From NCBI GenBank assembly GCA_964291315.2, contig OZ219753.1:1312001-1376000 (forward strand): a stretch of DNA of 64,000 nt. The letters run 5' to 3'. This DNA is from Candidatus Poribacteria bacterium. Its GTDB lineage: Bacteria > Poribacteria > WGA-4E > WGA-3G. Below are positions 16,571 through 32,460 of the stretch, piece by piece (within the stretch, counting starts at the first letter, position 1; the number at the start of each line of letters is the position of its first letter). The notes under the pieces are model-generated. The model searched no databases. It saw only the letters and a list, made by a program, of their open reading frames with translations, and was not told the origin of the DNA. The translations under genes were made by a program, and so were the position numbers.

Positions 16571-18003
16571 ATGACTCTATCGAATAGGACATTAATACGC
16601 GGCGATAATCTACAGGCAATGCGGGAGTTCTCCGATATTTGTATCGACTTGATCGCTACCGACCCGCCCTTCAACTCCAAACGAGACTACTTCTTGCCAT
16701 ACAGAGCCGAGAAAGGTCAAAAATCTGATGCCCTCGTCAAAGCGTTTTCAGATACATGGACATGGGGATCGGAAGCAGAGAGCACCTATCAAGAACTACT
16801 CATCGATGCCGAGGAACAGGTCAGCAGCACGATTCAAGGCCTACGCCAATGCCTCAACGAAATACCTATGATGGCATACCTAGTTATGATGACGGTACGC
16901 ATTGTAGAAATGCATCGCATTCTCAAGGAAACCGGCAGTCTTTACCTGCATTGTGATCCTACGGCAAGCCACTACCTCAAAATCATACTCGATGCCGTGT
17001 TCGGTACACAGAATTTTAAAAATGAAATTGTGTGGCATTACAAACGGTGGACAGCCGCTTCTAGACATTTTCAAAAAATGCACGATGTGATCTTCTGGTA
17101 TTCTAAAACGGACGCTCATACCTTTACACAACCGCTGCAACCTTTTTCTGATGAATCATATATCGAAAACACAGTGCGCGGTTTTGTCGACGGTAAACTG
17201 GTCCGATTAAAGCACAAAGACGGCAACTACGTCTTGCGCAAAACCCAAAAAGAGGGGTCTTGATGCACGATGTCTGGCATGACATCAACTTTATCCCGCC
17301 CTCAAGCACGGAACGGGCAGGCTACCCTACACAGAAACCTGTCGAACTTTACAAACGCATTATACAAGCGTCCTCAAATGCGGGTGATCGGGTCTTAGAC
17401 CCATTTACAGGTTGCGGGACAACGGCCATCGCAGCAGAAAGCTTGAATCGTCAATGGATAGGTATAGACCGCACCTACCTTGCCGTCGGGACTGTCGCCC
17501 AACAAATAGAGAAATACTTTCCGCACCTCCGTGACGACATCACTATTACCGGAACACCTGAAAACGCCCCTCAAGCGTTAGACCTAGCACACAGAAACCC
17601 ACAAGACTTCGCGGAATGGATTGTCACGCACGTATTGAAATTTAAATCGAATGCTAAGAAAGGTGGCGATGGCGGTATAGACGGTATCCTAAGATTCCCA
17701 ATCGGTAAAGTCAACGGGAGACGAGCGTTCGGGAAAGCGGTGGCACAAGTCAAGGGCGGTCAATACACGCTTGGAGATCTCCGCGATTTTAGAACAGCTA
17801 TGCGAAATCAAGAAGCTGAATTAGGAGTCTTTGTCGCTACAACACCGCCCACGCGCGGCATGAAACAGGAAATCGCACGCGCAGGACGCTATAAGCATCC
17901 TAAATATAAAATGGAAATACCGAGCTTGCAACACTATCAGATACAAGACTATTTCACCGGTAAACTGCCGCAATTGCCTCACGCTGAGAGGAACCTCTTA
18001 TAG
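16571..18003 (+). pseudogene. N4/N6 DNA methyltransferase fused to an Mrr-like endonuclease domain, frameshifted (ORFs 16571-17263 and 17260-18003)
   Basis: DPPF (motif IV) in part 1; YPTQKP, DPFTGCGTT (motif I) and GGDGGIDG...AQVKGG in part 2. One extra G at 17254-17257 restores ...KEGVLMHDVW. Confidence 0.8.
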
Positions 18004-18201
18004 AAGATGTGTGGAAGATGTGCAGCGGAACCCTAAGACGGGATCAGTCGGAAAACCTTATCATTTTTTCTATACCGCCGATGCGTCCATTTACAACGTA
18101 CGGACACCTCTGGCGGATATTTTTTTTACCTATAACGTGAGTTTGAAAAAAGAGTGAGCAGGCCCTTTTGTAGCAGAACGGTTTCGGTTCCTCTGCGAGG
18201 G

Positions 18202-18217
18202 GCTTGTAGCATAGACT
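18202..18217 (+). repeat. GTAG-type REP-like repeat, copy 1
   Basis: GCTTGTAGCATAGACT is identical to 28855-28870; its 14-bp core is inverted at 55746-55759. Confidence 0.55.
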
Positions 18218-18329
18218 GTCAGTTTCCTGTACCTCTTCGGCGCTTCTCACACCACCTGTTAGGCTGTGCAAGTACTCTCACTATCCACAGCTGATCTCAG
18301 CAATTATCAAGCCAGCGTTACGTATATGA

Positions 18330-19142
18330 TTAATTGTCGGCTTTTAGGCGTTTTATTTCAGCCAATGCGTCTGCGAGCTCTGCGTCTGCAGCGGCTGCGC
18401 GTGCATCGGCTTGTTGTCGTGCGTCTGCCTCTGTGGCTGCCCTGGCATCGGCCTCTGCGGCCCGTGCATCAGCCTCTTGTCGTGCTTTTGCCTCTGCTTG
18501 TGCTCGTGCATCAGCCTCTTGTCGTGCCTTTGCCTCTGCGGCTGCGCGTGCATCGGCGTGTCTAACCCGTCTCTCCAAAGGCTCTAGCCACGCTGAACGA
18601 ACAGGATCATACAACCCGAGAGCCCCATCACGCTCGCCTAACTCTAAACCCAGCACAACCGACGGCAGACGACCGTTCACGAAGCCTATCTCCTCATACA
18701 CGCCATCAACAAGACGATACCCGAGAAAAGAAGGCGACACCTCGCCATAAGGATCGTAAATATAATACTCGCGCACCCCAAGCACCGACGCATACAACTC
18801 ACGCTTAGCAGTCAAGTCCTGCCGATAGGTGCTGCGACTCGCTAACTCTAAGATAAAATCAGGCGCCTGCCCCTCTTCCCAGACCCGATAGGTGCGCCGC
18901 TGCTTTTTACTCACCCCGAAGACAACAAACACATCTGGCGACACCGATTTCCTCGGGTTCCCCTCCTTATAATACATCATGAGATTGCCAGAGACATATG
19001 CGTCGTTGACATCTTGGAAGTGGTGCTCCAGCATCTGAATGCAGTCGATCATAAGTTTTCTGTGTTTGTCGGTTTCTGCCATAGGTTTATCGTCCGATTC
19101 GGGATAGACGAGCGTTGGAGCGGCTTTTATTTTGCTACACAT
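18330..19142 (-). CDS. Uma2/DUF820 PD-(D/E)XK-family endonuclease with coiled-coil tail (copy 1, 8 heptads)
   Basis: [31 protein letters not shown] and K..LYA..LGVREY motifs; ADARA repeats. Confidence 0.9.
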   Translation of the reverse strand: MCSKIKAAPTLVYPESDDKPMAETDKHRKLMIDCIQMLEHHFQDVNDAYVSGNLMMYYKEGNPRKSVSPDVFVVFGVSKKQRRTYRVWEEGQAPDFILELASRSTYRQDLTAKRELYASVLGVREYYIYDPYGEVSPSFLGYRLVDGVYEEIGFVNGRLPSVVLGLELGERDGALGLYDPVRSAWLEPLERRVRHADARAAAEAKARQEADARAQAEAKARQEADARAAEADARAATEADARQQADARAAAADAELADALAEIKRLKADN

Positions 19143-19187
19143 AGGTCTGCCTCCTGCCTCTACTATCGTAATAAACTTATAGAATAA

Positions 19188-19216
19188 AGTATATCAGCAA
19201 AAGCTGGATATATCAA
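19188..19216 (-). promoter_or_regulatory. Sigma70 promoter repeated upstream of Uma2 copies 1, 2, 3 and 5
   Basis: Minus strand TTGATA-N17-TATACT with TGn. The spacer is itself a hairpin (ATATC-C-AGC-TTTT-GCT-GATAT). GGAGG RBS downstream. Confidence 0.7.
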
Positions 19217-19259
19217 GTGGCTGATCTCAATAATTATCAAGGTTGCGTTGGGTATATGA

Positions 19260-20051
19260 TTACGTGTCAGTTTTTAGGCGTTTGAGTTCAGCCAATGCGT
19301 CTGCGAGCTCTGCGTCTGCAGCGTCTGCGCGTGCATCGGCTTGTTGTCGTGCGTCTGCCTCTGTGGCTGCCCGTGCGTCTGCCTCTGCTGCCCGTGTTTC
19401 TGCGCGTTGTCGTGCTTTTGCCTCTGCTTGTGCCCGTGCATCGGCTTCTTGTGCCCGTGCATCGGCGTGTCTAACCCGTCTCTCCAAAGGCTCCAGCCAC
19501 ACCGAACGCACCGGATCATACAACCCGAGAACCCCATCACGCTCGCCTAACTCTAAACCCAGCACAACCGACGGCAGACGATCCCCCACAAAACCTATCT
19601 CCTCATACACACCATCAACAAGACGATACCCGAGAAAAGAAGGCGACACCTCACCATAAGGATCGTAAATGTAATACTCGCGCACCCCAAGCACCGACGC
19701 ATACAACTCACGCTTAGCAGTCAAGTCCTGCCGATAGGTGCTGCGACTCGCTAACTCTAAGATAAAATCAGGCGCCTGCCCCTCTTCCCAGACCCGATAG
19801 GTGCGCCGCTGCTTTTTACTCACCCCGAAGACAACAAACACATCTGGCGACACCGATTTCCTCGGGTTCCCCTCCTCATAATACAGCATGAGATTGCCAG
19901 AGACATATGCGTCGTTGACATCTTGGAAGTGGTGCTCCAGCATCTGAATGCAGTCGATCATAAGTTTTCTGTGTTTGTCGGTTTCTGCCATAGGTTTATC
20001 GTCCGATTCGGGATAGACGAGCGTTGGAGCGGCTTTTATTTTGCTACACAT
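19260..20051 (-). CDS. Uma2/DUF820 endonuclease (copy 2, 7 heptads)
   Basis: Near-identical to copy 1. Confidence 0.9.
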   Translation of the reverse strand: MCSKIKAAPTLVYPESDDKPMAETDKHRKLMIDCIQMLEHHFQDVNDAYVSGNLMLYYEEGNPRKSVSPDVFVVFGVSKKQRRTYRVWEEGQAPDFILELASRSTYRQDLTAKRELYASVLGVREYYIYDPYGEVSPSFLGYRLVDGVYEEIGFVGDRLPSVVLGLELGERDGVLGLYDPVRSVWLEPLERRVRHADARAQEADARAQAEAKARQRAETRAAEADARAATEADARQQADARADAADAELADALAELKRLKTDT

Positions 20052-20168
20052 AGGTCTGCCTCCTGCCTCTACTATCGTAATGAACTTATAGAATAAAGTA
20101 TATCAGCAAAAGCTGGATATATCAAGTGGCTGATCTCAATAATTATCAAGGTTGCGTTGGGTATATGA

Positions 20169-20939
20169 TTACGTGTCAGTTTTTAGGCGTTTGAGTTCAG
20201 CCAATGCGTCTGCGAGCTCTGCGTCTAAAGCGTCTGCGCGTGCATCGGCTTGTTGTCGTGCGTCTGCCTCTGCTTGTGCTCGTGCATCAGCCTCTTGCCG
20301 GGCTCTTGCCTCTGCTTGCGCCCGTGCATCGGCTTCTTGTGCTCGTGCATCGGCGTGTCTAACCCGTCTCTCCAAAGGCTCCAGCCACGCTGAACGAACA
20401 GGATCATAAAATCCCAGTCGCCCCGCACGCTCGCCTAACTCTAAACCCAGCACAACCGACGGCAGACGACCGTTCACGAAGCCTATCTCCTCATACACGC
20501 CATCAACAAGACGATACCCGAGAAAAGAAGGCGACACCTCACCATAAGGATCGTAAATGTAATACTCGCGCACCCCAAGCACCGAGGCATACAACTCACG
20601 CTTAGCAGTCAAGTCCTGCCTATACGTGCTGCGACTCGCTAACTCTAAGATAAAATCAGGTGCCTGCCCCTCTTCCCAGACCCGATAGGTGCGCCGCTGC
20701 TTTTTACTCACCCCGAAGACAACAAACACATCTGGCGACACCGATTTCCTCGGGTTGCCCTCCTCATAATACAGCATGAGATTGCCAGAGACATATGCGT
20801 CGTTGACATCTTGGAAGTGGTGCTCCAGCATCTGAATGCGGTCGATCATAAGTTTTCTGTGTTTGTCGGTTTCTGCCATAGGTTTATCGTCCGATTCGGG
20901 ATAGACGAGCGTTGGAGCGGCTTTTATTTTGCTACACAT
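20169..20939 (-). CDS. Uma2/DUF820 endonuclease (copy 3, 6 heptads)
   Basis: Near-identical to copy 1; ERAGRLGFY block shared with copy 4. Confidence 0.9.
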   Translation of the reverse strand: MCSKIKAAPTLVYPESDDKPMAETDKHRKLMIDRIQMLEHHFQDVNDAYVSGNLMLYYEEGNPRKSVSPDVFVVFGVSKKQRRTYRVWEEGQAPDFILELASRSTYRQDLTAKRELYASVLGVREYYIYDPYGEVSPSFLGYRLVDGVYEEIGFVNGRLPSVVLGLELGERAGRLGFYDPVRSAWLEPLERRVRHADARAQEADARAQAEARARQEADARAQAEADARQQADARADALDAELADALAELKRLKTDT

Positions 20940-21056
20940 AGGTCTGCCTCCTGCCTCTACTATCGTAATGAACTTATAGAATAAAGTATATCAGCAAAAG
21001 CTGGATATATCAAGTGGCTGATCTCAATAATTATCAAGGTTGCGTTGGGTATATGA

Positions 21057-21890
21057 TTACGTGTCAGTTTTTAGGCGTTTGAGTTCAGCCAATGCGTCTG
21101 CGAGCTCTGCGTCTGCAGCGGCTGCGCGTGCATCGGCGTGTTGTCGTGCTTTTGCCTCTGCTTGTGCCCTGGCATCAGCCTCTTGTCGTGCTTTTGCCTC
21201 TGTGGCTGCGCGTGCATCGGCCTCTGCGGCCCTGGCATCGGCGTGTTGTCGTGCTTTTGCCTCTGCTTGCGCCCGTGCATCGGCTTCTTGTGCTCGTGCA
21301 TCGGCAGTCTGCAGCCATACCGAACGAACAGGGTCATAAAATCCCAGTCGCCCCGCACGCTCGCCTAACTCTAAACCCAGCACAAGCGACGGCAGACGAC
21401 CTTCCAAGAAGCCTATCTCCTCATACGCACCGTCCACAAGACGATACCCGAGAAAAGAAGGCGACACCTCGCCATAAGGATCGTAAATATAATACTCACG
21501 CACCCCAAGCACCGATGCATACAACTCACGCTTAGCAGTCAAGTCCTGCCTGTAGGTGCTTGGACTCGCCAACTCTAAGACAAAATTAGGCGCGTGTCCC
21601 TCTTCCCAGACGCGATAGGTGCGCCGATCCTGTTTGCTGACGCCGAAGACAACGAACACATCCGGAGACACGGATTTCTTAGGGTTTCCCTCTTCATAAT
21701 ACAGCATCAGATTGCCAGAGACATATACATCGTTGACCTTGCGGAAGTGGTGATTGAGTTTCTGAATGCAATCCATCATGAGGCTTCTGTGTTTATCAGT
21801 TTCTGCCATAGGTTTACCGTCCGATTCGGGATAGAGGATCGTTGGGTCTGGGTAGACCAACGTTGGAACGGCTTTTATGCTTCTCGGCAT
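21057..21890 (-). CDS. Uma2/DUF820 endonuclease (copy 4, divergent N-terminus, 9 heptads)
   Basis: Same motifs; start MPRSIKAVPTLVYPDPTILYPES; different upstream spacer. Confidence 0.9.
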   Translation of the reverse strand: MPRSIKAVPTLVYPDPTILYPESDGKPMAETDKHRSLMMDCIQKLNHHFRKVNDVYVSGNLMLYYEEGNPKKSVSPDVFVVFGVSKQDRRTYRVWEEGHAPNFVLELASPSTYRQDLTAKRELYASVLGVREYYIYDPYGEVSPSFLGYRLVDGAYEEIGFLEGRLPSLVLGLELGERAGRLGFYDPVRSVWLQTADARAQEADARAQAEAKARQHADARAAEADARAATEAKARQEADARAQAEAKARQHADARAAAADAELADALAELKRLKTDT

Positions 21891-21966
21891 GGCACTACCT
21901 CCTGTCTCTCTTGTTGTAATGAACTTATTGTATAGAGTTTATCCATACTGTTTGATCACGGAATCA

Positions 21967-22800
21967 TTATTTTTCAGTTTTCAGGCGTTTTATTTCAGCC
22001 AATGCGTCTGCGAGCTCTGCGTCTGCAGCTGCTGCGCGTGCATCGGCTTGTTGTCGTGCTTTTGCCTCTGCTTGTGCCCTGGCATCAGCCTCTTGTCGTG
22101 CTTTTGCCTCTGTGGCTGCCCGTGCATCGGCCTCTGCGGCCCTGGCATCAGCCTCTTGTCGTGCTTTTGCCTCTGCTTGCGCCCTGGCATCAGCTTCTTG
22201 TGCCCGTGCATCAGCGTGTCTAACCTGTTTATCCAAAGGCTCCAGCCATACCGAACGAACAGGATCATACAACCCGAGAACCCCATCACGCTCGCCTAAC
22301 TCTAAACCCAGCACAAGCGACGGCAGACGATCCCCCGCAAAATCTATCTCCTCATACACACCATCAACAAGACGATACCCGAGAAAAGAGGGCGACACCT
22401 CGCCATAAGGATCGTAAATGTAATACTCACGCACCCCAAGCACCGAGGCATACAACTCACGCTTAGCAGTCAAGTCCTGCCGATAGGTGCTGCGACTCGC
22501 TAACTCTAACACAAAATCGGGCGCATGTCCCTCTTCCCAGACCCGATAGGTGCGCCGATCCTTTTTGCTGACCCCGAAGACAACAAACACATCTGGCGAT
22601 ACCGATTTCCTCGGGTTCCCCTCCTCATAATACAGCATGAGATTGCCAGAGACATATGCGTCGTTGACATCTTGGAAGTGGTGCTCCAGCATCTGAATGC
22701 AGTCGATCATAAGTTTTCTGTGTTTGTCGGTTTCTGCCATAGGTTTATCGTCCGATTCGGGATAGACGAGCGTTGGAGCGGCTTTTATTTTGCTACACAT
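21967..22800 (-). CDS. Uma2/DUF820 endonuclease (copy 5, 9 heptads)
   Basis: Same motifs; unique KTEK end. Confidence 0.9.
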
Positions 22801-22917
22801 AGGTCTGCCTCCTGCCTCTACTATCGTAATAAACTTATAGAATAAAGTATATCAGCGAAAGCTGGATATATCAAGTGGCTGATCTCAATAATTATCAAGG
22901 TTGCGTTGGGTATATGA

Positions 22918-23730
22918 TTACGTGTCAGTTTTTAGGCGTTTGAGTTCAGCCAATGCGTCTGCGAGCTCTGCGTCTAAAGCTTGTGCGCGTGCATCAGCCT
23001 CTTGCCGGGCTCTTGCCTCTGCGTCTGCGCGTGCATCGGCGTGTTGTCGTGCTTTTGCCTCTGCTTGTGCTCGGGCATCAGCCTCTTGCCGGGCTCTTGC
23101 CTCTGCTTGCGCCCTGGCATCGGCTTCTTGTGCCCGTGCATCAGCGTGTCTAACCTGTTTATCCAAAGGCTCCAGCCATACCGAACGAACAGGATCATAC
23201 AACCCGAGAACCCCATCACGCTCGCCTAACTCTAAACCTAGCACAAGCGACGGCAGACGACCGTTCACGAAGCCTATCTCCTCATACACGCCATCAACAA
23301 GACGATACCCGAGAAAAGAAGGCGACACCTCACCATAAGGATCGTAAATATAATACTCACGCACCCCAAGCACCGACGCATACAACTCCCGCTTAGCAGT
23401 CAAGTCCTGCCGATAGGTGCTGCGACTCGCTAACTCTAACACAAAATCGGGAGCGTGTCCCTCTTCCCAGACCCGATAGGTGCGCCGATCCTTTTTGCTG
23501 ACCCCGAAGACAACAAACACATCTGGCGATACCGATTTCCTGGGGTTCCCCTCCTCATAATACATCATGAGATTGCCAGAGACATATGCGTCGTTGACAT
23601 CTTGGAAGTGGTGCTCCAGCATCTGAATGCAGTCGATCATAAGTTTTCTGTGTTTGTCGGTTTCTGCCATAGGTTTATCGTCCGATTCGGGATAGACGAG
23701 CGTTGGAGCGGCTTTTATTTTGCTACACAT
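22918..23730 (-). CDS. Uma2/DUF820 endonuclease (copy 6, 8 heptads)
   Basis: Same motifs. Confidence 0.9.
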
Positions 23731-23798
23731 AGGTCTGCCTCCTGCCTCTACTATCGTAATGAACTTATAGGATAAAGGGTATCAGCAAAAGCTGCCCC

Positions 23799-28889: not shown

Positions 28890-29491
28890 GAAAAAAAATA
28901 AAACTTTTTTCTCCGAGATGTGTATATACCTATTAAGAGGGCAACCTGTGTGTTATGTTGTTCTCTGTAAGTAGCATTTGAAAAGTATTCCGATTTCACT
29001 TATAGGTGTGAACGTTTCGCTGGAAGATGTGTAGCGTTTGCGAAGAAGGAGAAGAGTCATGTCAACAGAGGTTCGTTATAAAGCAGGGGTTGTTATAGTT
29101 GAGCCCCGTGGCAAGATAATAGGTGGGCGTGTCTCGGAGCTACGGACTGCGATATTACCAGAGGTGAGAGCCTGTGATGCCCCTCGTATTCTGATAGATT
29201 TATCGCATGCACATCGTTTAGATTCCTCGGGTTTAGGGGTGCTGATGCAAGCGTATGTGCTGACGAAGCACAAGCGTGGGCGCATCGGTGTCATCCATGT
29301 CGGCAAACACATCAGGAACTTACTGGTTATCAGCCGGTTATTGACATCATTTGAGCATTTCAACAGCGAGTCTGCGGCGGTTGCAGCGTTTGGAAAATAG
29401 GTAAAGAAGGCTGCAGCGCCCCTTTTGCGTTCGTTTGAAAAAACAGTTGTTCCGTCCCGGAGTCACAGCTGGATTGCCGGCTGTGGCTCCG
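28890..29491 (+). repeat. Left arm of a ~600-bp inverted repeat
   Basis: Reverse complement of about 31861-32460, covering the upstream region, the STAS gene and the downstream hairpin. Confidence 0.9.
29059..29400 (+). CDS. STAS-domain anti-sigma factor antagonist (copy A)
   Basis: IDLSHAHRLDSSGLGVL with the phosphoacceptor Ser; ATG after AAGGAG. Confidence 0.9.
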   Translation: MSTEVRYKAGVVIVEPRGKIIGGRVSELRTAILPEVRACDAPRILIDLSHAHRLDSSGLGVLMQAYVLTKHKRGRIGVIHVGKHIRNLLVISRLLTSFEHFNSESAAVAAFGK

Positions 29492-29550
29492 TGTTTCCAA
29501 ATATCTACCCGCGCTGTTGAATACAAGCATCTCTTTCGCGGTTTTGCAAA

Positions 29551-31716
29551 TTGTCACGGAGTATCCAAATGAGATGTGTCACTAACGTCTTGATAGCGCT
29601 TCTGTTTCTGATTAACCCTATCGGGCATTCACAATCCGATAACCGTATTGTAGCTTTTGATTGTCCAAAACTGCCGACTTCTGAATTCAATTTCGATGTA
29701 GATAGCCAAGTTATCGCGCTTTTAATGGAGGACCCAACCTCGGATATACCACCGTTGTTTAACACTATCGATGTTCTCTCCCTGCGCAGCTATCGAGGGC
29801 AGTCCGTCAGTTTCAAGGACATCGTTGAATATTATCAAGATATTCTAGAAGCGCGCCAGTGGCACGTTTTAAGACTCCCCGCCGAAGATGATTTAGAAAG
29901 TGCCACTTTGCATCTCTATGTCCTCCAAGAAAACGACACTGTTTACGGGATCTTTGCTATGATAAAAAGCACCGATACAGTGTACCTCATAAACATCACG
30001 GGTGCGATCCCGGAAGAGCAGCTAGGTGCCTTGCTCACAGGTCTCAATAAACTCAGTATTGAAATCCCGGAGCTCATGTCCCTGAATTCTGAGAGTGTGA
30101 AAGCTGCGCGAGCGGAAACATCAATGCCTGCTCAAACTGCCCCAGCAACGAGAACGCCTTCTGTTACACCGCGCGAGACTCCGCCGCTTACGCGAACTGT
30201 CTCACTCCTAAGATCTATGACTATCTCAGCGGCGGGCAGTAGCCCTGTCTACGAATCAATACCTGACACGTTAGTCGGGCAGAAAAACGACCTACAGGCT
30301 TCAAAAAACATCCCCCGTTTTTGGGCTGGCGACGTGCCTATCCACGCTATACGAATCCGGGGAAACCAGAAAATTTCAGAACAGGTCATCCGACAGACAC
30401 TCGAAAATAGTCAGTCGCCTGACCTCTCAAAAGCGCTGGAGACCCTCTTTAAAGCGGCTCCCTATTTTAAAGAGATCGCTTTACAAGTAGATAAGGAAAG
30501 TTCGAAATATATCGCCACAATTACGTTTAGTGAAAAACTGCTTTCTACCGGTGTATACCTCGGCTTCCACCGCCAACTGCGTCTCGGTTTCAACCGAGTG
30601 ACAGGCTGGGAGATCGGGGCAACAGGTATTGAATTCGGTAAAAGAGAGAATGTCGGTCCGTTTTGGGTGTGGAACCTCAGCGATTCAGTCAGTGATCGCA
30701 CCCACAAACTCTTTGGAGAGGCCAATTATGTCTTCGGCAACCCGCGTTTTCACTACCGTTTGGGTGGAACGGCGAATTGGGGGAAGCTTCATACGTGGAG
30801 CCTCGGACTCACCGCACAAATTCACCGTTTGACAGATGTCGTTGCCCCTGAACTCTTTCCGAACATGCCGCTCCCTAATTTTCAACGGACTATCGGGGCA
30901 CCGGACCTTCAAAATTACTATCTTCGCCAAGGTGCCGAGATCGCGATGCGATGGTCACCCGAAATGCCGCTTCACACGTTCAAAATGACAATGCTTGCAG
31001 AGTCACAGTCGAGCCTACAGAAAAGCACAGATTGGTTTCTCACGAATTGGAGCTCAACCTACACTGTCAGGGAAAACCCACCAATACGCCCCGGGAAAAT
31101 GCGAAGCATCGCCTTCCAATACGATTTTCGGGACCTGAAAAGAAGATCTTTGGGATGGCAGAATACCCTCCTCATCGAACATAGCAATACTCGCTTTGGA
31201 TCCGACTTCGATTTTACACGTTTGCTCTTACACCTCCGGTACGCTTTTCCGCTCGGGGATCACCGAGTGCGCACCCGATTTCTTTTCGGGTTCTCCAACA
31301 GATCACTTCCCGTTCAACGCCAATTTGTTATAAATGGGATAGCGGGACTCCGCGGATATCCTTGGTACAGAGAAGAAAATGAACCCGAAGGTTTTATGAA
31401 TTACAAGTTCGGGCACACCGTTTCTCCCTATGCCTTTGCGGGAGACCGCGGGTTTCTACTCAACGTTGAATATCACCACAGCTTAGCAACCCTATTGAGG
31501 TGGAGTTTTTTCAAAACTGCGTTCGCGATTATCTTCTTAGACGAAGGACAAGTTTGGCATGTATCCGGCCCGGCGTATACTTTCAATCCCAAAGGGAACA
31601 TCGGCATCGGTGCACAGATGTTAGTCGGTATTTTCCTTCTCCGAGCCAACATCGCAAAAGCCTTTGAGTCCGGAAAAGGGTTTCAAGTTACGACGGTTTT
31701 AAACCACCCGTTTTAG
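29551..31716 (+). CDS. Outer-membrane protein: DUF4252-like N-terminus, POTRA-like domain and BamA/TamA-like barrel
   Basis: Signal peptide; 'IRIRGNQKISEQVI' POTRA-like segment; LRGY motif; amphipathic strands; terminal Phe. Confidence 0.65.
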   Translation: MSRSIQMRCVTNVLIALLFLINPIGHSQSDNRIVAFDCPKLPTSEFNFDVDSQVIALLMEDPTSDIPPLFNTIDVLSLRSYRGQSVSFKDIVEYYQDILEARQWHVLRLPAEDDLESATLHLYVLQENDTVYGIFAMIKSTDTVYLINITGAIPEEQLGALLTGLNKLSIEIPELMSLNSESVKAARAETSMPAQTAPATRTPSVTPRETPPLTRTVSLLRSMTISAAGSSPVYESIPDTLVGQKNDLQASKNIPRFWAGDVPIHAIRIRGNQKISEQVIRQTLENSQSPDLSKALETLFKAAPYFKEIALQVDKESSKYIATITFSEKLLSTGVYLGFHRQLRLGFNRVTGWEIGATGIEFGKRENVGPFWVWNLSDSVSDRTHKLFGEANYVFGNPRFHYRLGGTANWGKLHTWSLGLTAQIHRLTDVVAPELFPNMPLPNFQRTIGAPDLQNYYLRQGAEIAMRWSPEMPLHTFKMTMLAESQSSLQKSTDWFLTNWSSTYTVRENPPIRPGKMRSIAFQYDFRDLKRRSLGWQNTLLIEHSNTRFGSDFDFTRLLLHLRYAFPLGDHRVRTRFLFGFSNRSLPVQRQFVINGIAGLRGYPWYREENEPEGFMNYKFGHTVSPYAFAGDRGFLLNVEYHHSLATLLRWSFFKTAFAIIFLDEGQVWHVSGPAYTFNPKGNIGIGAQMLVGIFLLRANIAKAFESGKGFQVTTVLNHPF

Positions 31717-31860: not shown

Positions 31861-32460
31861 CGAAGCCACAGCCGGCATCCCAGCTGTGGCTCCATGATAC
31901 AAGTGGTGTTTTTTTTCAAACGGACACAAAAGGGGCGCTGCAGGCTGCTTTACCTATTTCGCAAACGCTGCAACCGCCGCAGACTCGCTGTTAAAATGCT
32001 CAAATGATGTCAATAAGCGAGTGATAACCAGTAAGCTCCTGATGTGTTTGCCGACATGGATGACACCGATGCGCCCACGCTTGTGCTTCGTCAGCACATA
32101 CGCTTGCATCAGCACCCCTAAACCCGAGGAATCTAAACGATGTGCATGTGATAAATCTATCAAGATCCGAGGCGCATCGTAGGCGCTCACCTCTGGTAAT
32201 ATCGCAGTCCGTAGCTCCGAGACACGCTCACCTATTATCTTGCCACGGGGCTCAACTATAACAACCCCTGCTTTATGACGAACCTCTGTTGACATGACTC
32301 TTCTCCTTCTTCGCAAACGCTACACATCTTCCAGCGAAACGTTCACAGTGCAAGCAAATGGAAATAGCTTTCAAATACTTCTTACAGAGAACAACATAAC
32401 ACACAGGTTGCCCTCTTAATAGGTATAGATACATCTCGGAGAAAAAAGTTTGTTTTTTTT
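31861..32460 (-). repeat. Right arm of the ~600-bp inverted repeat
   Basis: Reverse complement of 28890-29491. Confidence 0.9.
31954..32295 (-). CDS. STAS-domain anti-sigma factor antagonist (copy B)
   Basis: Differs from copy A at 7 of 113 residues. Confidence 0.9.
   Translation of the reverse strand: MSTEVRHKAGVVIVEPRGKIIGERVSELRTAILPEVSAYDAPRILIDLSHAHRLDSSGLGVLMQAYVLTKHKRGRIGVIHVGKHIRSLLVITRLLTSFEHFNSESAAVAAFAK

Follow-up and report, generated by a model that had tools for sequence, protein, structure and literature searches.

Why does a bacterium keep six near-identical genes for a predicted nuclease in a row, and what might the row be for? We pursued this question in a 64,000-nucleotide window of Candidatus Poribacteria bacterium (assembly GCA_964291315.2, contig OZ219753.1, positions 1,312,001 to 1,376,000), a member of the sponge-symbiotic Poribacteria. 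The window lies inside a 3.26-Mb contig of the present genome (G000; 4.4 Mb, four contigs), whose closest named relatives, at 68-76% identity, are Candidatus Poribacteria. Between positions 18330 and 23730, six intact open reading frames (ORFs) of the Uma2 family (COG4636, DUF820) follow one another head to tail on the minus strand; we number these copies A1 to A6 in the direction of transcription (A1 at 22918, A6 at 18330). The array is real and intact. We read it as a strain-variable Uma2 cassette that purifying selection keeps intact and recombination resizes and homogenises, in which tail length would be a by-product of slippage and the role would be extra dosage of a stand-alone nuclease against incoming DNA; we put the probability of this reading at about 0.5.

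The Uma2/DUF820 family is large and expanded; its members are predicted nucleases, and structures have been solved since 2004. The tandem arrangement would not in itself surprise a specialist, as cassettes have been in print since 2005 and 2009. The array is genuine, a recombining cassette whose genes encode a conserved predicted nuclease, and a modest variant of these published Uma2 cassettes.

Six intact Uma2 genes in one array

The gene lengths and tail-unit counts listed in an earlier note on this DNA were borne out by the ORFs and by their 21-bp tail units, which are in register (Table 1). The same note called the nuclease domains almost invariant. That description suits five copies, which share 92.5-96.7% DNA identity with one another over a 522-nt core, but not A3, which is only 87-88% identical to the other five. 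The 277 amino acids (aa) of A3 reflect a 7-aa N-terminal insertion balanced by a linker 7 aa shorter. A3 groups with two of the dispersed copies, those found at C4:416 kb and at C4:2432 kb, and A4 has a 3' patch in common with A3. Across the genome we found 13 close Uma2 copies, namely the six-copy array, a second array of three copies (G000:C4:2367817-2370540, 1 Mb from the first) and four dispersed singles, besides three more distant ones. Some protein lengths recur, inside one array or across both: 270 aa is found three times, 256 aa and 277 aa twice each.

By profile, motif and fold, the array genes belong to Uma2/COG4636. The Pfam model Uma2 (PF05685) matched six of six copies at 70-74 bits against a cut-off of 27; Pfam gave beyond this only one sub-cut-off chance match, and NCBIfam gave none. 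The active site (H27, P69-D70, E99 and K113, forming H-PD-EXX-K) is invariant across the six copies, and in 39 homologues P69, E99 and K113 are invariant while H27 and D70 are kept in at least 90%. The earlier note had described a PD...E.xS core; this core is kept, but the catalytic lysine is present too, further along as K113. A lysine shifted to the next helix is part of the definition of COG4636 that Feder and Bujnicki give (PMC551604). An AlphaFold model of A6 built on the 39-sequence alignment (predicted local distance difference test score 88) predicted a compact nuclease head at about residues 20-187 and a single 81-residue helix at 189-269. Foldseek returned 9 significant matches, all to Uma2/DUF820-type structural-genomics entries (6okh, 9y1l, 3ot2, 3ijm, 1wdj; E 2e-7 to 5e-4), which places the head in the TT1808-like restriction-endonuclease fold.

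The array thus resembles described Uma2 proteins in its PF05685 match, its fold (1wdj, 3ot2, 6okh, 9y1l), its H-PD-EXX-K site, its lineage-specific expansion and its tandem copies, and differs in that the present subfamily adds a C-terminal helix of 35-100 residues that varies in 7-residue steps. The earlier note took Uma2 genes to be usually dispersed. Passages of PMC551604 agree, listing tandem COG4636 duplications as rare (among them four consecutive genes in Crocosphaera), but those of Makarova et al. (PMC2701414) count 114 COG4636-COG4636 neighbour pairs, place the family mostly in "cassettes of paralogous genes" and regard it as a likely solo toxin. Compared with the tandem genes in these two sources, the present array, with six near-identical copies, promoters of their own and a transposon-derived stub, is longer and younger.

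Because a long repeat can be an assembly product, one rival explanation is that strain variants or dispersed paralogues were stitched into an array. The genome is metagenome-derived, and among contigs derived from four read runs of a single study (X1-X4, of which X1 may be the source sample) none spans the entire array. A 226-nt contig in X1, however, joins a gene end, a spacer and the next gene start at a depth of 6931, against 961 in the single-copy flank. This is 7.2x the flank where the assembly predicts a mean of 6.1x, read depth not being a strict copy number. The spacer bin reached 6.1x the flank depth in X2, and in X4 the head-to-tail junction had a depth of 62 against 12-22 in the flank (3-5x). 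The array also sits within the 3.26-Mb contig, and its copies differ by 3-14%, in our judgement above the usual single-gene divergence of co-occurring strains. Misassembly, the earlier note's own worry, is therefore contradicted by the read-derived contigs, and we consider such an artefact extremely improbable.

Related strains carry other junction types. The more distant strains in X3 and X4 carry a junction absent from the present genome, in which a full miniature inverted-repeat transposable element (MITE) lies between two Uma2 genes (depth 7157 vs 3959 in X3, 35 vs 12-22 in X4). In both runs a membrane-protein gene sits between the MITE and the methyltransferase gene beside the array. Array layout thus differs between strains. 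A joint of positions 18059 and 23801 in X3/X4 was considered as an empty site and rejected, as a second contig links an A6-like gene end and the same MITE copy as in this joint to the start of a membrane-protein gene; an extra membrane-protein gene behind the array is more likely in these strains than absence of the array, whose copy number is unreadable from the contigs.

The long Uma2 array is special to the present lineage, judged from 64 other genomes of the genus. Fifty-four of these matched at E ≤ 1e-78, giving 110 matches in total and no more than 5 in any one genome. Not one of the 110 was head to tail with another, with 28 of the 64 genomes in three contigs or fewer. At a looser threshold, two relatives yielded a direct pair and a triple whose middle copy is partial.

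Table 1. The Uma2 array and the features beside it, in window coordinates
Feature	Position	Strand	Description
N6/N4 methyltransferase + Mrr-like nuclease domain fusion	16571..18003	+	neighbour outside the array, convergent, two ORFs
Full MITE-like element, 188 bp	18133..18320	-	terminal inverted repeats, left end degenerate, 9 bp past last stop codon
A6, last Uma2 copy	18330..19142	-	270 aa, 8 tail heptads
117-bp spacer	19143..19259	-	MITE left-end stub of ~31 bp, sigma70-like promoter, ribosome-binding site
A5, Uma2 copy	19260..20051	-	263 aa, 7 tail heptads
117-bp spacer	20052..20168	-	same make-up as 19143..19259 spacer, predicted promoter 20125-20097
A4, Uma2 copy	20169..20939	-	256 aa, 6 tail heptads
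117-bp spacer	20940..21056	-	same make-up as 19143..19259 spacer, predicted promoter 21013-20985
A3, Uma2 copy	21057..21890	-	277 aa, 9 tail heptads, divergent lineage
76-bp A2-A3 spacer	21891..21966	-	starts like the upstream membrane-protein gene, 21/27 bases matching
A2, Uma2 copy	21967..22800	-	277 aa, 9 tail heptads
117-bp spacer	22801..22917	-	same make-up as 19143..19259 spacer, predicted promoter 22874-22846
A1, first transcribed Uma2 copy	22918..23730	-	270 aa, 8 tail heptads
Membrane-protein gene, 156 aa	23799..24269	-	predicted signal peptide, heptad-variable coiled coil, membrane helix

Selection, exchange and the origin of the array

We estimated the ratio of nonsynonymous to synonymous divergence (dN/dS) for the nuclease heads and obtained 0.15-0.26 for each of the 15 pairings of the six; across the 13 close copies, every one of the 78 pairs fell within 0.03-0.34. 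Pooling the nine array copies gave 63 synonymous and 41 amino-acid alleles (pN/pS 0.19), although such alleles do not count as independent and some of the divergence may be older than the array. Four-gamete incompatibility was found in 91 of 224 pairs of head sites less than 60 bp apart, compared with 315 of 436 pairs at least 200 bp apart, and a value as low as that for adjacent sites appeared in 0 of 10,000 permutations. By this pattern the heads are mosaic. The six 117-bp spacers of the two arrays deviate from the first spacer by 0-1 base and differ by 0-2 bases overall, while the cores differ by 3-14%. Because the spacers are nearly identical in both arrays and the heads are mosaic, recombination among the copies has likely changed the size of the array and homogenised it.

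Third-codon G/T skew is strong in the 3' half of the head of every copy (codons ~100-175; 18330-23730), with a TA skew of 0.75-1.0 in one 50-codon block. We do not claim skew of the GRINS type (genetic repeats of intense nucleotide skews): whole-gene TA skew exceeds the 95th background percentile, but the amino-acid make-up of the tail contributes to it and GC skew is borderline.

The strong recombination signal in the heads also accords with the model that Feder and Bujnicki put in print for the COG4636 family (PMC551604), under which the array would be a selfish recombinogenic nuclease: rare nicks or breaks would stimulate recombination that duplicates the nuclease's own gene, with no benefit to the host. 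The 13 close copies here, against at most 5 matches in any of the 64 congeners, fit this model, as do the erratic neighbourhoods of the copies and the MITE ends that follow 10 of the 13 close copies, compared with 27 of 3040 long ORFs, the copies themselves being counted in that total. Against the model, the data showed neither fixed ends nor target duplications and no allele with an empty site, and the adjacency to MITEs was probably inherited from one ancestral insertion: among 68 homologues of other genomes, none had a MITE end within 80 bp of its stop codon. On the same count we rejected the MITE as a general carrier of Uma2. Furthermore, an unrelated non-nuclease gene and about 20 methyltransferases have been amplified in the same genome, so that amplification needs no nuclease activity, and some Uma2 copies occupy a conserved aspS locus across species. 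We regard the selfish explanation as unlikely.

The spacers suggest a cassette trimmed by deletion. A predicted promoter, a consensus match only, precedes four of the six copies; in the spacer between A6 and A5 it reads TTGATA-17-TATACT with a TG (19216-19188). No promoter of its own was found for A1, which is likely read from the upstream membrane-protein gene. The 76-bp spacer between A2 and A3 differs from the rest. Its match to the start of the membrane-protein gene reached a score that 0 of 2000 random 600-mers attained, and it is likely the remnant of a deleted membrane-protein gene, whose first 27 bases were joined to its downstream intergenic stretch; the array would accordingly consist of two blocks. 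No integron-like cassette sites were seen by eye in the spacer, where the repeated motif is a MITE end.

The MITE family is found genome-wide, with ends TAACGYGAG..TTGA; we counted 85 left ends, 60 right ends and 24 compact two-ended copies of 106-294 bp. Its ends match 1.02-kb PF13612 insertion sequences of relatives in 4 of 10 loci examined, and by this match the family goes back to a PF13612 insertion sequence, of which relatives have intact copies. As a side observation, MITE ends also occur as inward-facing pairs 0.5-4 kb apart, and 4 of 8 such pairs enclose, by eye and with no baseline, ORFs resembling methyltransferases or restriction-modification (R-M) genes (C1:164767, C1:429797, C4:407622 and C4:459888).

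The membrane-protein gene upstream of A1 has no Pfam family above cut-off and exists in five close genomic copies, the others at C3:37691, C3:222596, C4:416588 and C4:490368. At C4:416 kb it stands directly upstream of a single A3-like Uma2 gene, which a MITE end follows, and it is likely part of an ancestral cassette. The simplest history we infer is tandem duplication, trimming by deletion and continued exchange. An ancestral cassette of membrane-protein gene, Uma2 and MITE, persisting at C4:416 kb, would have been duplicated in tandem; deletions would then have reduced the MITE to its stub and spared only 27 bases of the inner membrane-protein gene, so that each compact unit holds a promoter, a gene and a stub. 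Copy number would change by unequal crossing-over, and gene conversion would carry head patches and 21-bp tail units among the copies and between both arrays.

Variable tails and the likeness to Rpn

We surveyed the tails of the 120 best homologues, of which 118 could be anchored (2 were dropped; 7 are from the present genome). These tails are 34 to 93 residues long, their lengths peaking at 37, 44, 51, 58 and 65, and 94 of the 118 fall in a single length class modulo 7. The homologues whose DNA was inspected are nearly all dispersed genes, so heptad stepping does not need an array. The earlier note had proposed that the array exists to generate tail variants. We found no support for this: dispersed homologues show the same steps, lengths recur within the array, and the stalks of the five copies of the unrelated upstream membrane protein (12, 12, 19, 33 and 40 residues) move in equal 7-residue steps. 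For these reasons, tail length is likely a by-product of 21-bp slippage and not a code. The array tails comprise 71 units, 38 of them distinct; 17 of the 38 are common to several copies, two of these across arrays.

In 117 tails the variable part is composed of Ala, Glu, Gln and Arg and has almost no bulky hydrophobic side chains; in the terminal segment, by contrast, Leu or Ile occupies four positions in 99-100%. The label of coiled coil given earlier therefore suits the tip, and the variable part is better termed a polar stalk. We propose that a Mg-dependent PD-EXX-K nuclease head is carried on a polar, alanine-rich helical stalk, the conserved 11-residue leucine segment at its end mediating dimerisation. 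Dimerisation would agree with two-hybrid data in which DUF820 occurs in nine self-interacting Synechocystis proteins, with self and paralogue interactions (PMC2779905), an indirect support. As the heads are nearly identical, all copies would be expected to share one substrate, and the effect of the array would be more enzyme without a wider specificity. We found no published account of a heptad-stepped Uma2 tail in the titles, abstract openings and passages at hand, and the word "Coiled" is absent from PMC551604.

A different role for the tails is suggested by Rpn (YhgA-like, COG5464), a family of PD-(D/E)XK nucleases in which the repeat number of a C-terminal helix varies and sets binding specificity, and which forms arrays by tandem duplication and protects against phage (Zhong et al., 10.1101/2023.05.02.539157). 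Rpn and the array genes have in common a PD-(D/E)XK head, a repeat-variable C-terminal helix, tandem arrays and the lack of a transposase role. They differ in Pfam family (only Uma2 matched the array proteins), in repeat length (7 residues here, 4 in Rpn) and in the tail, which is modelled here as a single long helix and is a three-helix bundle in Rpn. The array genes also have no conserved internal start for a tail-only antitoxin. A Shine-Dalgarno-like motif followed by a start, sought in 85 codons around the tail start, appeared in 18 of 68 homologues, scattered and not conserved, and the conserved Val is encoded by GTT or GTA, not GTG. We therefore rejected an Rpn-like internal antitoxin start on this sequence test. 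Rpn is the closest working analogue in plan, and the array is not Rpn.

Could tail length nevertheless act as a code, picking a pairing partner, an inhibitor or a phage trigger, and so turn the array into a defence or toxin module that diversifies? The precedent of Rpn speaks for this, as do a STRING link between COG5464 and COG4636 (PMC1913061) and the combination of a constant head with a variable tail that keeps its 7-residue phase. Apart from the missing internal start, what opposes it is that Met is present in only 6 of 118 tails, that the unit contains no antitoxin gene, that the same lengths recur within and between arrays and that the variable part offers no hydrophobic interface. We find a code of this kind distinctly unlikely. 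Its boldest form, in which tailed Uma2 would embody a second, antitoxin-free Rpn principle, with heptad number setting dimer partners or a phage or host trigger and with MITE-seeded arrays and gene conversion reshuffling the code in sponge-symbiont Poribacteria, is very unlikely; if true, it would give the large Uma2 family its first function. The nine array copies form a natural series with a near-constant head and 6-10 tail heptads, which allows the effect of tail length, DNA cutting and phage blocking to be tested directly.

Neighbourhoods and a possible role in defence

A defence role for the array is possible on genomic context, though not for the reason given in the earlier note, which had pointed to the adjacent methyltransferase-Mrr gene and an RNA ligase. 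The former is convergent with the array, is thrown out of frame by one base at a short run of A/G near 17255 (also in an X1 contig) and is one of 22 close methyltransferase paralogues in the genome; the latter, RtcB, lies 2 kb from the array beyond the methyltransferase, unlinked and with no match to a PADLOC model. The array thus lacks the intact, linked cognate methyltransferase of an R-M pair. A methyltransferase of the neighbour's type was present within 6 kb in 3 of 54 relatives' Uma2 loci, and enrichment judged solely by the N6/N4 profile (4 of 11 Uma2 loci, against 17% at random positions) was unconvincing and was dropped. Feder and Bujnicki likewise found no methyltransferase link for the COG4636 family (PMC551604). 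An extra base at the 17255 run was observed in an X2 contig (2023 of 7637 depth, possibly a paralogue) and in one X3 contig.

Other hints of a defence context come from a PADLOC model and from other Uma2 loci. The array heads match PDC-S03 (E 1e-11 to 1e-12, positions 40-144 of 188; the model has no stated cut-off), which has a homologous Uma2-type head. PDC-S03 differs in that its models cover 184-207 positions with no tail, so that the array match is partial, and in that the array lies outside BREX, DISARM and type I R-M operons, between the membrane-protein gene and the methyltransferase-Mrr gene. A tail-less Uma2 gene elsewhere in the genome is, unlike the array, embedded: it stands between hsdS and hsdR of a type I R-M operon (G000:C1:57066-61973) and matches PDC-S03 over its full length. 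At two other loci of the present genome (G000:C4:1508984-1515435 and G000:C4:511030-517452) hmaB and hmaC are directly followed by a tailed Uma2 gene, as single copies that are not embedded, and the same gene order was found in two other genomes (L022, L023). Overall, 4 of 6 close Uma2 loci lie within 600 bp of a methyltransferase or hmaBC gene, compared with 5% of other long ORFs.

Several points weigh against reading the array as a selected nuclease dosage cassette for defence. Many of the silent differences may have arisen before the array did, so the selection that the earlier note claimed for each copy, while evident as purifying selection across the six heads, is shown for the family and not for every copy. 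Exact retention of the 7-residue phase in the tails could reflect selection rather than mutation. The PDC-S03 match spans only about 110 of 188 positions, and the tail-less Uma2 in the type I R-M operon matches far better (E 2e-27). The match is also weak evidence for defence because PDC systems are themselves candidates, predicted from embedding in BREX, DISARM or R-M loci (Payne et al., 10.1101/2024.01.29.577857); PDC-S03 does not appear by name in the main text of that paper, and PMC12881386 makes no mention of S03, Uma2 or DUF820. The count of 4 in 6 loci used post hoc queries from the same neighbourhoods and includes two duplicate loci, and a methyltransferase or Hma gene lies within 6 kb in only 5 of 54 relatives' loci. 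The commonest context in congeners, present in 8 of 15 regions picked for holding two or more Uma2 copies, is aspS, Uma2, a secreted leucine-rich repeat (LRR) protein, Uma2 and a dicarboxylate transporter, an arrangement that is not a defence island. Finally, among the literature searched, mostly titles and abstract openings, we found no published report that any Uma2 protein acts as a nuclease or in defence.

The aspS locus has a structure of its own. In eight congeners (L137-L144; also L135 and L136) one or two large secreted LRR/FlgD-Ig proteins lie between the Uma2 copies, followed by the dicarboxylate symporter, and in L143 the order is Uma2-LRR-Uma2-LRR-Uma2. The Uma2 copies here act as direct repeats flanking a variable set of secreted-protein genes.

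Two further tandem arrangements were observed. A tailed Uma2 gene is convergent with a tandem pair of paralogues at G000:C1:130373-132559, which measure 353 and 374 codons from stop to stop and have no Pfam or PADLOC match at 1e-5. Within the window, a STAS-domain gene (120 aa) occurs twice in near-identical form around an Omp85-domain gene (29038-31716, 31954-32316), possibly as a tandem unit.

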